Source of the DNA: Heterodontus francisci
Taxonomy: Eukaryota
Direction of reading: 5' to 3'
Length of the DNA stretch: 64,000 bases
Assembly: GCF_036365525.1 (NCBI RefSeq)
Contig: NC_090375.1
Coordinates: 188,303,233-188,367,232, forward strand
Made by a program: the position numbers and the translations under genes
Notes under the pieces: generated by a model
What the model was told of the DNA's origin: nothing
What the model saw: only the letters and a program-made list of their open reading frames with translations
Database searches by the model: none
In this document: positions 25,816 to 34,480 of the stretch, piece after piece
Position numbering within the stretch: the first letter of the stretch is position 1
How the letters are laid out: every line of letters starts with the position of its first letter

Positions 25816-26429
25816 CTCAGCCTAACGTTGCTGTTGTATTGGGTGAAGGAAGAGGACATGTTGACATCCAGAAAGAGGGTAACTTGTGTCCCTCCCATTG
25901 CACTACTGCCACTCCTGCAAGGCTGTGGCTTATCCGTCCCACTCATGTGTGGGAGAGCAGTCACAGGAGCTGAGTGACACCTTGAAAGCCCTTATCTTTC
26001 GGTTCATCAGTCTCTTCAGGTTGGACCCCAGGGTCTGAATGGTAGCTGTTTGACCTTCCACCAAAGCTGCAAAGTCTGGTAACATAGACACCGGACTCCT
26101 CTTGTAAGGCTTTGGCAACAATGTCCACTGGAAGAGGCCACAATCTCCAGAGTAGACTGCAGTGCAGCAATGCTGTGTAAGAGGTTTGGAATGGGAATTC
26201 AAGATAGTTTACTGTGCCCTTGTGATGAGGAGTGAACAATGTGATGCGGGGGGGGGGGGGGGGGGGGGAATTGTTCGGATTGCTGTGGGAGGTGGGTGGA
26301 AAGGACTCTTACCAGGTATTGTGCAGAGAGATGGGGAGTGAGCCCTTGCTGCTCTGTGAGACCATTGAGGGGTTTGATGCTCAGGAAAGGTGCTAGGGGG
26401 TTGGGGGAGGTGATGGTCCTGAAGCTAAC

Positions 26430-26690
26430 TGTTGTGTGATTGCCTTTCAGAGTAATGTACCTTTAAGATCTTAGTATGCTAATGACCCAAGTACCAGGAT
26501 ATAGTCATGTGACTACATGCTTGTCCCACTCTGTAACTGTAACACCAAGAAGCAAGACCTGCAAATAGATAGCTCTGTACTGTGTATAGTTGTTAGTTGT
26601 TTAATAAATCTGTTTGAGATCTTCAACTACCTGAGCTCCACGCATCTCACTTATGGTGCATCAGACAACATAAAAAAGCTTCTCATTGCA
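26430..26690 (+). repeat. 5' LTR
   Basis: TGTTGTG...ATTGCA with internal AATAAA; about 22 substitutions versus the 3' LTR by manual alignment, no indels seen. Confidence 0.95.
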
Positions 26691-26705
26691 TGGTGGCAAT
26701 GGTGG
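26691..26705 (+). promoter_or_regulatory. Primer binding site, tRNA-Leu-like
   Basis: TGGTGGCAATGGTGG immediately after the LTR, versus TGGTGGCAGCGGTGG (complement of a tRNA-Leu 3' end including CCA, as recalled). Confidence 0.75.
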
Positions 26706-27427
26706 TGAGAAGAAAAAAATACAAGTTTTGACCACAGGAAAACAGCTTTAAAAACCAGCTACAGCTGGAAGTGGGAAAGTTAAAGAAAAATACTGCCCCA
26801 ACAGGGAAAGAAGAAAACCCCTTCATCTGCAGACAGAGCTCTGAACAACAGGTTACAGATCAATCACTGTGATCAGGTGAGTCAGTTTGCCATCGGTAGA
26901 GAAATCCCAGTTAAAAAAAGAAAAGCCTTTGAAGTCCTTAAAAAATTGATTTTTTTTCTGTCAAAGGCTCCCTGGGAGAGTAAAAAATACAGGGAAGACC
27001 CAATCCCTTTCTTAGGCTGATCGTGACGGACACCATTACAGGAGGCGTCCGACAACACAAAGCGCAGGAATCCTTCATTCATGTAGCTTGCAGCTAGAGC
27101 TATAAATAGAAACCATTAAATCAATGGAAGGCTCTAGAGCCTTCACTCACTCAGTCAGAGTTTAAAAAAAACTCGTAAAACCACTCAACCATGAAAAATT
27201 GCTGCTTGAAAGGCTGTATAAACAAACTAGCAGAGAGAAAAAAAAGCACTTGAAATACCTGTTGCACAGCTGTATAAACAGAACAGGCTTAGTGCTGGAA
27301 GCTAGACAAACAGACAATCTGCTGCTATCAATCAAATCAACCAAGACTGTTTCTTAATGAGGAAACAAGTACAGAGTCTTAAAGTAAGTTCTTAAAGCAA
27401 GCTTTAAAGCAAAAGAACAGCAGAAAG

Positions 27428-28110
27428 TTGGATTCCAATTTTCCCAGCATGAACTGGCAAGCCTTGGATATCCTATCCGAGTTCAAACTGTTCAAACAGA
27501 GAATGCAGTTATGCTTGACAGACCAAGTGCTGGAAGCAGAGAAGCAAACTAAAAATAATGATAGCGATTGGAAATGAGGGATTGCCAAGAGGCAATACGT
27601 ATGGATTATCTGAAGAGGACCAGAAAGATCCCACAAAGATATGGAAAGTGTTGGAAGATCAGCTCTGATTGAGAGTGAAATTTCAAATTCACCACCTGGT
27701 GCCCTATAGGCAACAACCACAGGAATCAATAGACCAGTTCATTAGTAGATGCCGAAGTAAGGCTAACGAATACGATTTCATAGAAGCTGAGCTGTCAGAC
27801 CGAATAATGCAGTTGGTGATTGTATCAACACCCATCAAAGCATTTCAGAAAGACCTCTTGGGGGAAAAAGAAAGGACAGCATTGATGCACTACTGGAAGA
27901 TGGCAGGAAGTATGAAACCATTGCAGCTAGACAACAGCATCTGCAAGCACTTGGTGCAGCCAACAGTATTGGATCCATAACCAGGTTGAAAAAGGCAAGC
28001 AAGCTGTGTGGTAAATGTGGTTGCTCCCACTCATGGTGAAGTTGTCTTGCATTTCGAGACCTGTGCAAGACATGCAGTGTAAAAGGACACTGGACCCGCC
28101 TATGCATGAA
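27428..28110 (+). pseudogene. gag: Degenerate gag (capsid-like region and two zinc knuckles)
   Basis: FPSMNWQALDILSEFKLFKQRMQL...KIWKVLEDQL*LRVKF...QQPQESIDQFISRCRSKA (MHR-like); CGKCGCSHSW*SC and CKTCSVKGHWTRLC at 28007-28105. Frameshifts and stops are present. Confidence 0.85.
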
Positions 28111-28339
28111 TTCCAGCTCAAAAGACAAAGCCAGAAGTCACGGTCGGATGCAAACAAACAGACAACAGGGCAACAGCAGCAAGGAAAGTGCAGAGACCTG
28201 TATAAACACAAGCCAATACATGAGGTCCACAGCAAAACAGACCAGAGACAAGACTTGGGTGGGAGCAAGTCTCGGTTAGAAGACGAGCAAGCATTCCACA
28301 TTGTGAACCTGACACATCACGTTGATGAAGTCCAACAAG

Positions 28340-28660
28340 CTTTCACCACCATCAACATCACGTGCCCAAGGAAAGCTGGCAAACATACACACAAGGTCAA
28401 GATTGACACTGGCGCTAGTGCAAATATCATACTGGTTCAAATCCTCAAAGATAGTGCCAGAATCGTTGGAGATCAATGATATAACTGACAACTGCCAAGT
28501 TATCTGCATACAATGGGTCACTCATCCCATGCAGTGGCACATTAACAATGCAATCCAGCTATGGCAAGTCAGCTTGGAAACCACAAACGTTCTACCTAGT
28601 AGACATGAGCAGACTGCCAGTGTGTAAGGACCTCAACATCATAACAATCCATGACAGTAT
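28340..28660 (+). pseudogene. Degenerate retroviral-type aspartic protease
   Basis: KVKIDTGASANII (DTG at 28405-28413); after a frameshift, KLSAYNGSLIPCSGTLTM...PQTFYLVD...LPVCKDLNIITIH. Confidence 0.85.
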
Positions 28661-28709
28661 TCCCAAAGGGAAATCTCCAAGGACCAGAATCTGCTCACAG
28701 ACTCTGACC

Positions 28710-29140
28710 AGCATCAAACGGCGCAGCCTGGGAACCCAGCAACAGCACAACGAGGCCGCGCCTTCACTTCTGCTGTCTAGAGAATCGCCAGCACCACAAC
28801 GAGCCAGAACGGACAGGTATCTCCATGAAACTAAGTACTCTTCCCCCAACAAATCCTTGACCTTGAGCCCCAAGTCTTCAGACACAGAGGATGAGGAGAG
28901 GCAAAGAACATGCAATGTCCTGAAGAGGCAGAGGAGGAATGAGTTGAAGCATTATCTGTTGGCTCTTTGAGATGATGTGCTGGAACTTTCCAAGAATGAT
29001 AAAACCTCAAAAGTAGTCTGCTTGAGAAAAGCAACAGAGTATGTTAGCAGGCTAAAGGCAGAGCAACAGAAACTGAAAGCAGAGAGGGCGAAATTGCAGA
29101 AAGAACAGCAACAGATGAGACGTAAACTCCTTGAGCAAGA
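28710..29140 (+). pseudogene. myc: Transduced Myc-family C-terminus (Myc box IV, NLS-like segment, bHLH-leucine zipper) with one internal stop
   Basis: IKRRSLGTQQQHNEAAPS (cf. LKRCHVSTHQHNYAAPPS); [90 protein letters not shown] (cf. c-Myc [60 protein letters not shown]...KLEQ). TGA at 28968 sits where Arg (CGA) is expected. Confidence 0.93.
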
Positions 29141-29278
29141 GTTGTCAAACCACCAAGACGACCTATGGACATTTGAGCCTCTATTCTTGTGAGTTTTATA
29201 ATCTCTAGCCATGTGTAAATAATTTTGATGTTATCTAATGTTATGTATTTTCACCATTAGCATACGAGACTTATCTTT

Positions 29279-29291
29279 GGAAAGAAGGGGA
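29279..29291 (+). promoter_or_regulatory. Polypurine tract
   Basis: GGAAAGAAGGGGA directly upstream of the 3' LTR. Confidence 0.9.
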
Positions 29292-29552
29292 TGTTGTGTG
29301 ATTGCCTTTAAGAGTAATGTATCTTTAAGATATTAGTATGCTAATGAGCCAAGTACCAGGATGTAGTCATGTGACTACATGCTCATCCCACTCTGTAACT
29401 GTAACACCAAGAGGCAGGACCTGCAAATAGAAAACTCTGTACTCTATAAAGTTGTTAGCTGTTTAATAAACCTGTTTGAGATCTTCAATTACCTGAACTC
29501 CACGCATCTCATTTATGTTGCATCAGACAACATAAAGAAGCTTCTCATTTCA
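29292..29552 (+). repeat. 3' LTR
   Basis: TGTTGTG...ATTTCA, 261 bp, followed by ctgac (5' flank ctaac). Confidence 0.95.
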
Positions 29553-30379
29553 CTGACCATCTTAGCCACCTCTCTCCAGGCTTGTTAAACATACATTTTT
29601 GGAATCTTCCTGCCATTAATGGGGAGGGAGAACTTTCATCTTCCACCTCTACTCTTTCACCATAAACTCCAGTGAGGTTTCAGAAAATCTGGGGATGTCT
29701 GCAACAGTCTCTGACCACATTCCTTTTTGCAGCAATGAAACAGCAAAACCAACCAGCTGGAAGTGCAGTATCCCTTTCAGCTTGATTTAAATGTGATTAA
29801 TTGTTCCAAACTGTGCATTTTGTGATACATATATAATTTCAATAATTTAACCTGGATTTTATCTTAGCTCTAAAAAAAACAAGCAATCATTGTAAGGTTT
29901 TGATGTGTGGATTAACAAGGTAAATTTCTAAATTAAACATAATGCAAAAGATTTCATGTAGATATACCATAAATAGCACTACGATTCATTCATTAATCCT
30001 GCTTGGATTGGGACTGCTACTGGGAGCTTGCACAAGAGGGGGTGACAAATTGAGTGCAGCTGCAGCTCTTAAAGGGGCTGCAGCTGCCACTTAAAGGGAA
30101 GCTTGCTTTTTTTTGGCAGTGATGGGATCACAGGCAGCAAACTGATTACTGGAAAGCTGTGGTACAATGCCGACAAAGAACCTGCAGCATTGGCTGAGCT
30201 TGTTTCTTCTTCAAGAAGTATGCCAAAGGAGTTTACTCCTTTTTTGCTGGGACTGAAGGGCATTCTCCTGACAGGAAGTCTGCCATATTAAGTGGGAGGA
30301 GGTGGTGGCACACAGGATCAATGCATATATAAATATAACAAATACTTTTATTTCTATATATATATATATATATGTAAAT

Positions 30380-33450: not shown

Positions 33451-34480
33451 GATGGTTGTGGTTGTTGGAGGTCAATTATCTCAGCTCCAGGACATCACTG
33501 CAGGAGTTCCTCAGGGTAGTGTCCTAGGCCCAACCATCTTCAGCTGCTTCATCAATGACCTTCCTTCAATCATAAGGTTAGAAGTGGGGATGTTCGCTGA
33601 TGATTGCACAATGTTCAGCACCATTCATGACTCCTCAGATACTGAAGCAGTCTGTGTAGAAATGCAGCAAGACCTGGACAATATCCAGCCTTCAGCTGAT
33701 AAGTGGCAAGTAACATTCGCGCCACACAAGTGCCGGGCAATGACCATCTCCAACAAGAGAGAATCTAACCATCGCCCCTTGACCTTCAATGGCATTACCA
33801 TTGCTGAATCCCCCACTATCAACATCCTGGGGGTTACCATTGACAAGAAACTGAAATACCATGGCTACAAAAGCAGGTCAGAGTCTAGAAATCCTGTGAT
33901 GAGTAACTCACCTCCTGACTCCCCAAAGCCTGTCCACCATCTACAAGGCACAGGCCAGGAGTATGATGGAATACTCTCCACTTGCCTGGATGGGTGCATG
34001 TCCAACAACACTCAAGAAGCTCAACACCATCCAGGACAAAGCAGCCCATTTGATTGGCACTCCATCCACAAACATTTATTCCCTCCACCACCGACGTACA
34101 GTGGCAGCAGTGTGTCTCATCTACAAGATGTACTGCAGCAATGCACCAAGGCTCTTTAGAGAGCACCTTCCAAATCCGTGACCTATTACCTAGAAGGACA
34201 AGGGCAGCAGATGCATGGGAACACCACCACCTGCAAGTTCCCCTCCAAGCCACACACCATCCTGACTTGGAACTATATCGACATTCCTTCACTGTCGTCG
34301 GGTCAAAATCCTGGAACTCCCTTCCTAAAAGTACTGTGGGACTACCTACCCCACATGGACTGCAGTGGTTCTAGAAGGCAGCTTCTTCACCACCAGCTTC
34401 TCATGGACAATTAGGGATGGGCAGTAAATGCTGGCCTAGCCAGCGACCCCCACATCCCATGAAAGAATACAAAAGAAAAT
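33451..34480 (+). mobile_element. CR1-group LINE (second family), RT and 3' end
   Basis: ORF 33452-34159 GVPQGSVLGPTIFSCFINDL...MFADDCT...WQVTFAPHKC; then MMEYSPLAWM and the 3' tail. Confidence 0.95.

Follow-up and report, generated by a model that had tools for sequence, protein, structure and literature searches.

Acutely transforming retroviruses with a gag-myc gene, such as avian MC29, and the myc-carrying FeLV took up myc mRNA by template switching, lost pol, came to need a helper and carry Myc as a Gag fusion. Plant TR-GAG elements have kept LTRs and gag, have lost reverse transcriptase (RT) and integrase, and are spread by helpers. In animals, LTR-mediated retrocopies show microsimilarity at the switch points, with a median of 6 bp, in the portion of Tan et al. 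2016 drawn on here (PMC5131818).

The DNA analysed here, referred to as the window, is a stretch of 64,000 nucleotides of the genome of the horn shark Heterodontus francisci (NC_090375.1, positions 188,303,233 to 188,367,232, forward strand). At 26430-29552 it contains an old LTR element of 3.1 kb and Gypsy type, which consists of gag, protease, a Myc fragment and a pol tail, all on the forward strand.

Structure of the element in the window

The element has TG...CA LTRs, a tRNA primer site, a polypurine tract and a target-site duplication. The 5' LTR (26430..26690, 261 bp) pairs with the 3' LTR (29292..29552) at 8.4% divergence (92% alike), and RT, RNase H and integrase are missing between them, as an earlier note on this sequence had reported. 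The primer-binding site (26691..26706) is complementary to the 3' end of tRNA-Leu, and a host tRNA-Leu(TAG) gene has the complementary end; the polypurine tract (29279..29291) was read from the sequence. The flanking 5-bp duplications (26425..26429 and 29553..29557) differ by one mismatch, and 5-bp duplications of differing sequence also border other copies of the family. Each LTR carries a palindrome with a CATGTG core (26503-26512 and 29365-29374), which we take to be a non-canonical, M-box-like E-box, and no CACGTG was found in the LTRs. At C34:18.73-19.00 Mb a tandem array, made up of more than 80 units that each measure about 3.05 kb, carries the same tRNA 3'-end motif in every unit, and the single unit scanned contains tRNA-Leu(TAG), the likely primer of the family. 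Elsewhere in the window there are a decayed LINE-like reverse-transcriptase fragment (33452-34159) and many short interspersed repeats (families D1-D20), ordinary for this genome.

Gag (27428..28280, ends approximate) is broken into pieces by stops and frameshifts and includes a zinc knuckle (about 28058-28117; zf-CCHC_3, E 0.0014, below the curated cut-off). The aspartic protease region (28281..28655) gave no Pfam match and was assigned from its D-T-G motif (28405-28413) and from its position upstream of RT in the relative L102, described below. The C-terminal half of the protease runs into Myc in one open frame (28485-28970, stop to stop), just as the earlier note had read it. The note's wider statement that protease and Myc share a frame is true of the window-type join (42/42 copies) and untrue of the catalytic motif in this copy, which lies in a different frame from the ORF entering Myc, a frameshift preceding that ORF; among window-type copies, 22 of 29 have the stretch that follows the motif in frame.

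The Myc fragment (28656..29126) corresponds to host residues 201-357, approximately, of exon 3 of the gene mych, with 87.5% identity over 471 nt. It holds box IV (28713-28766), the basic region (about 28896-28940) and then the HLH and zipper. The ORF had been thought to enter Myc at box IV, but the join, at 28655/28656, sits about 19 codons before it. The HLH-zipper domain is present (Pfam HLH) and interrupted by an in-frame stop (28968-28970) inside the helix-loop-helix, where the ORF ends, so that no intact bHLH-zipper is encoded by this copy. The same stop, which falls on a CpG codon, is seen in 4 of 7 long copies; as a trait of the family it was rejected, since it is not at one of those codons whose host residue is retained by less than half of the window-type copies, and the shared-versus-rare count given below, in which CpG sites are masked, says nothing on it. 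The remnant of the pol C-terminus (29127..29176, RVVKPP to a stop) lies in another frame than mych, whose frame was read to end at 29190-29192, and the note's reading RVVKPPRRPMDI followed by a stop is indeed found at 29138-29176. The window copy is a dead, old family member.

mych as the donor

The Myc part is not a chance likeness, because it matches the host gene at 87.5% and because each of the 40 scored genome matches, among them the window's own locus, extends over most of the query at 83-100%. Three host Myc-family genes were recognised among the 119 scored matches (of 1,624 candidates) of a Myc_N profile search of the genome, two of which we take, from their motifs, to be MYC and MYCN, the third being on contig 16 (locus L046). 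No MYCL gene was recognised among the same 119 of 1,624, which is no evidence of its loss. It is the contig 16 gene that gives the 87.5% identity, and its protein is identical to the H. francisci record "myelocytomatosis oncogene homolog" (mych). The cargo is thus of the Myc family, as had been proposed, with mych and not c-myc as donor: the copies match MYC at only 67-71% and in short pieces, as against 85-92% over exon 3 of the contig 16 gene. N-myc was likewise rejected, the MYCN coding exons giving no match at the threshold used.

In longer copies exons 2 and 3 are joined and the 1.7-kb intron is skipped, which indicates that the template was a spliced mRNA; the window type begins inside exon 3, where the exon join cannot show. 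Together with the differing target duplications, the exon join rules out capture from genomic DNA and segmental duplication. Host codons 121-357 were captured originally, of which 201-357 are left in the window type. In the host protein, codon 121 comes after boxes I and II, presumably the activation boxes, which were never captured.

Two annotated copies cluster with mych of Heterodontus (support 86/89, under the level that the tool marks with a star), and of 12 sites that set Heterodontus apart from other sharks, the majority of copies are Heterodontus-like at 6, other-shark-like at 2, mixed at 2 and neither at 2. Because the copies group with Heterodontus mych and carry its residues at 6 of the 12 sites, the capture most likely took place on the horn-shark lineage. 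In zebrafish, Pou5f1 activates mych as soon as the mid-blastula transition is over, and expression of the gene is broad, according to the portion of PMC3958507 cited here, and by analogy across species expression in the early embryo would be a plausible moment for co-packaging in the germ line. A 2014 supplementary figure legend of the same paper states that mych has no known homologue outside zebrafish (PMC3958507), unlike the shark records that now bear this name. Three copies of the family (P0011, P0012 and P0013) are annotated publicly as "myc" or "N-myc proto-oncogene protein-like", and mych-derived copies confound annotation, read mapping and estimates of mych expression.

RT-bearing relatives and the original capture joins

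With the integrase tail of a long copy as query, 30 loci were found, 27 of them without mych, and in 13 of 20 loci fetched more widely the protease runs into RT, with the same LTR at about 70-85%. One relative, L102, has RVT_1, RT_RNaseH, Integrase_H2C2 and rve in Gypsy order downstream of a D-x-G protease motif, and on this pol order (PR-RT-RNase H-integrase) the family is assigned to the Ty3/Gypsy LTR type. In L102 only about 100 nt separate the end of the pol tail from the 3' LTR, too little to accommodate env, and no env was seen in the RT-bearing relatives. The single ORF, the cysteine-rich gag and the tRNA-Leu primer resemble, as we assume, those of Mag-like elements. The portion of PMC3587641 considered gives no diagnostic features of the Mag clade.

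Pol of the RT-bearing relatives ends in TRSGRVVKPP, so that the RVVKPP motif in the window was correctly taken for the end of an autonomous pol. The terminal T-R-S-G-R of the relatives (e.g. L067-L070), which is in frame in long-tail chimeras and lost in short-tail ones, presumably resembles nucleosome acidic-patch-binding motifs. Two members of the same family (L074 and L084), in which the integrase tail is preceded at a short distance by the protease region and mych has no match, are other internally deleted derivatives. A further locus from the integrase-tail search, L114, has the LTR end and primer site of the later mych subfamily type, and possibly represents a co-evolving helper lineage.

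The RT-bearing relatives and the longer copies also show that both joins in the window are later deletions, 28655/28656 included, and not the capture joins for which the earlier note took them. At the original 5' switch there is a 7-nt identity just before RT, where pol and mych both read Asp-Ala in the same frame; at the original 3' switch, late in integrase, a 6-nt identity lies inside 14 of 19 matching bases, and both read Lys-Phe-x-x-Met-Gln. About 2.2 kb of pol was in this way exchanged for mych codons 121-357, in frame at both ends. With the exon 2-3 join and the microhomology found at both original joins in the breakpoint check, the note's proposal of mRNA capture by two template switches is upheld: the reverse transcriptase of an autonomous gag-PR-RT-RH-IN element jumped onto spliced mych mRNA and then back.

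Deletion subfamilies, copy number and age

By their 5' join, 90 distinct mych-bearing copies, obtained by similarity searches and therefore biased to well-kept copies, fall into class A (original and oldest, 29 copies), class B (an intermediate deletion, 13) and class C (the window type, 42), with 6 unclassed. In the tree, A copies are intermixed with RT-bearing copies and C copies stand apart. Successive deletions produced shorter subfamilies, probably in the order suggested by the nesting of the joins and by this placement, and the window shows the last stage. Separate rearrangements include a partial tandem duplication inside one copy (L159) and a pair of oppositely oriented original-type joins at a distance of 8.7 kb (C10:18910354 and 18919063).

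Exact matches to the join patterns in the genome number 484 for C, 81 for A, 135 for B and 479 for uninterrupted pol, and the reversed-pattern controls gave 0. Calibration against sampled copies, of which the C, A and pol patterns match 15/42, 9/29 and 6/13, respectively, leads to estimates of about 1,350 for C, 260 for A and 1,000 for uninterrupted pol, the B count of 135 being uncalibrated. The mych-bearing copies thus number at least 700 by exact join matches and about 2,000 by estimate, and on the estimates they outnumber the helper. The shortest subfamily, the window type, is the most numerous, copy number rising as length falls. The copies are dispersed, each with different target duplications, which indicates repeated non-autonomous retroposition. 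A chimera that had kept LTRs, primer site, polypurine tract, gag and protease integrated many times, with new 5-bp duplications, RT and integrase probably being supplied in trans by the autonomous family.

The LTR pairs differ by 10.1% in C (n=14), 11.2% in long A copies (n=6) and 11.4% in RT-bearing elements (n=9). At the substitution rate that we assume for sharks (0.3-1 per billion years per site), this corresponds to a single, old period of activity that dates back some 50-170 million years. Codons 201-355 of mych are without stop or frameshift in 5 of 77 scored copies. In a weak search of protein records, which covered 90 candidates of 164-524 aa, the fused part was found in only three, all from the horn shark. 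In three runs from one sample, which are RNA by guess only, contigs match 28 of 30 bins at 80% likeness, and the window-type join is crossed by one contig; neither observation is used as evidence of expression.

Conservation of the reading frame

We consider it reasonably probable that the mych-bearing elements are helper-dependent passengers in which the reading frame, and not the protein, was kept. The 5' join is in frame in 23 of 29 A copies, in all 42 C copies and in 5 of 9 scorable B copies, the other B copies having differing small indels; over a longer interval the B frame is kept in 3 of 8. The mixed state of B, which rests on 9 copies with twelve further intermediate-class loci left out of scoring, counts against the passenger reading. 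Between gag and mych, one and the same frame is the most frequent among class A and class C copies over almost all intervals, a single tie occurring in A, and the single gag-PR-mych frame proposed in the earlier note is thereby supported. The note also extended this frame into the pol tail, which is right for 20 of 23 long-tail copies and wrong for the window subfamily, 51 of 61 short tails being shifted identically. Measured between anchors, the long tails come to 366, 135 or 39 nt, lengths that are multiples of three apart, and the two tail deletions, shared among copies, keep the frame.

Selection would not be needed even for the frame if the microhomologies at the joins were biased to be in frame, chance did the rest and the short forms won through faster copying of their RNA. 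This we regard as rather unlikely, although several observations agree with it: chance pol-mych matches of 5-8 nt are in frame in 39-53% of cases (45-53% at 6-7 nt), copy number climbs as length drops, one shared join is out of frame, and about 2.5 shared disruptions of mych would be expected where none was observed (P about 0.08, a hand estimate). Against it, 6 of the 7 shared large joins keep the frame (by hand, P=0.007 at an in-frame share of one third and 0.04-0.09 at 45-53%), and the exception shifts the stop by only 16 nt. Moreover, the window-type 5' join has an overlap of only 2 nt, for which a homology bias cannot account, and a 12-nt deletion in gag shared among copies is in frame as well.

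For a helper-dependent passenger, an open frame up to a near-normal stop would avoid a premature stop with a long 3' tail and would allow Gag to be supplied in cis, the same-frame microhomology having probably contributed too. The Myc protein itself would have drifted, its DNA-contact residues being lost either by drift or because a stump that bound E-boxes but had no activation domain harmed the carrier cell.

Selection on gag, protease and mych

With CpG codons masked and a within-class baseline near 0.8, net dN/dS between C and A is 0.19 for gag (CI 0.10-0.38), 0.19 for protease (0.05-0.46) and 0.65 for mych (0.24-2.6, an interval that spans strong constraint). Shared changes in gag are 40 synonymous to 32 nonsynonymous, against 721:1577 among rare ones (p=3e-5), which shows purifying selection on gag; the corresponding counts are 14:14 against 402:801 in protease (p=0.07). 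For mych codons 201-355 they are 7:18 against 542:1043 (p=0.67), without a purifying signal in a test whose power is low at about 25 shared changes. The earlier note saw a hint of selection in the preserved frame; for the amino acids of Myc, neither dN/dS nor the shared-versus-rare check gives any sign of it, and contact residues have been lost. Against the drift reading, mych codons 134-200 lean to constraint (5:5 against 113:271, p=0.17), and within-class dN/dS of mych is 0.68-0.72 in the window type versus 0.81-0.85 in the oldest class. Among the scored copies no stop in mych is shared at a non-CpG site and, one A-run apart, each indel is confined to one or two copies.

The constraint on gag and protease was rejected as proof of selection on the chimera, because RT-bearing elements share gag-PR: of 36 loci fetched from 39 non-self matches, 4 of the nearest gag-protease relatives continue into RT. 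The signal in gag may instead have been imported from helpers. Such exchange fits the 4/36 and the mixing of the oldest class with RT-bearing copies in the tree, and it would lead one to expect the net dS between classes that was found, which is four times higher in gag (0.14) than in mych (0.03).

Loss of DNA-contact residues

The residues that give MYC its E-box specificity are His359, Glu363 and Arg367, as stated in the portion of PMC10437117 considered here, and mych His286 and Glu290 align to specificity residues of MYC. Glu290 is replaced by Lys in 11 of 22 long A copies (the oldest), 10 of 14 intermediate copies and 34 of 42 window-type copies, and is kept in 9 of 22 and 1 of 42 in the oldest class and the window type, respectively; because the Lys codon is not at a CpG, the change is taken to be inherited. 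His286 is Arg or Cys in 31 of 42 window-type copies, which have not retained the His/Glu/Arg contact triad of a functional Myc factor. Of 155 codons, 14 differ from the host in most window-type copies, and 7 of these are at the 43 invariant Myc positions (p=0.064), which pure drift would not predict.

Such a pattern might be expected of a selected decoy, in which a Myc stump without activation domain still dimerises, sequesters Max or other partners in the germ line or early embryo and so aids the spread of the element, DNA binding having been lost stepwise, first at Glu290 and then at Arg283 and His286. By dimerising without binding DNA and manipulating Myc/Max signalling, it would be an inverted germ-line counterpart of retroviral oncogene capture. 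Both the decoy itself and this interpretation of it seem to us improbable. The inherited rise of Lys290 from the oldest to the window-type class speaks for a decoy, as do the presence of 2 of the 3 E-box-contact codons among the 14 changed ones (p=0.022, in a test chosen after the pattern was seen), the single change among these 14 in the 39 codons of the HLH, and the retention of box IV and the bHLH-zipper by A, B and C, that is, by every multi-copy 5' deletion class. Yet an overall purifying signal on mych is absent, and changes found in at least a quarter of a class also strike HLH and zipper codons (317, 318, 327, 330, 337, 347, 350 and 354). The retention of the 3' part may also simply mark where deletions leave a packageable RNA.

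The earlier note had envisaged a Gag-PR-Myc polyprotein and the release of a Myc fragment by its protease. Taken further, this reading would have the released fragment be active and promote proliferation, on the model of the acutely transforming retroviruses. The prevalence of a single gag-to-mych frame agrees with this, and so does the oldest class, which keeps the PR-RT linker and, in 9 of 22 copies, Glu290. We nevertheless hold it to be highly improbable, given that the capture starts past box I and box II, that mych shows no sign of purifying selection and that the largest subfamily has neither the DNA-contact residues nor the linker. The window-type deletion removes this linker, and with it, presumably, the expected protease cleavage site.

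Comparison with known systems

In the horn-shark family there is a fossil record of how, in the germ line of a vertebrate, an LTR element that is not a retrovirus captured a member of a proto-oncogene family; one and the same genome preserves the parent, the donor, the two original joins and the nested deletions. Its thousands of copies allow tests of whether frame, length or protein is selected after a host gene has been captured, and small RNAs that target host mych and silence it may arise from the dead copies, of which there are roughly 2,000.

In the capture of a Myc-family mRNA, the loss of pol, the need for a helper and the fusion to gag, the family resembles MC29 and FeLV. Those viruses are enveloped, were selected in somatic tumours and keep the activation boxes and DNA binding, whereas the shark element is envelope-less and germ-line, took up the paralog mych, and has no activation boxes and a degraded basic region. 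It is like the TR-GAG elements in what was kept and what was lost, but the shark family alone refilled the lost part with host coding sequence.

The mechanism is known, from retroviral oncogene capture and from LTR-mediated retroposition as treated in the cited portion of Tan et al. 2016 (PMC5131818). In the retrocopies described there, as in the shark, internal ORFs were replaced by part of a spliced mRNA, both LTRs were kept and later non-autonomous rounds followed, and the 7 and 6 nt at the shark switches are close to their median of 6 bp (PMC5131818). As far as that portion goes, those cases are young or individual loci (PMC5131818), whereas the shark capture founded a family of about 2,000 copies with deletion subfamilies and an in-frame fusion of the cargo to gag-protease. 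Maize Bs1 and HERV-K/FAM8A1, as cited in the same portion, are also LTR elements in which host gene sequence replaces their own genes, but Bs1, from a plant, carries pieces of three genes, FAM8A1 is described as an untranscribed pseudogene (PMC5131818), and neither carries a Myc-family cargo. In the open full texts, to which the search was confined (subscription journals for the most part, Repbase and Dfam lying outside its scope), there was no earlier report of a family of such scale and cargo. What sets the shark family apart is not the mechanism but the in-frame fusion of a Myc-family cargo to gag-protease, in an element of the germ line that has no envelope and reached about 2,000 copies.
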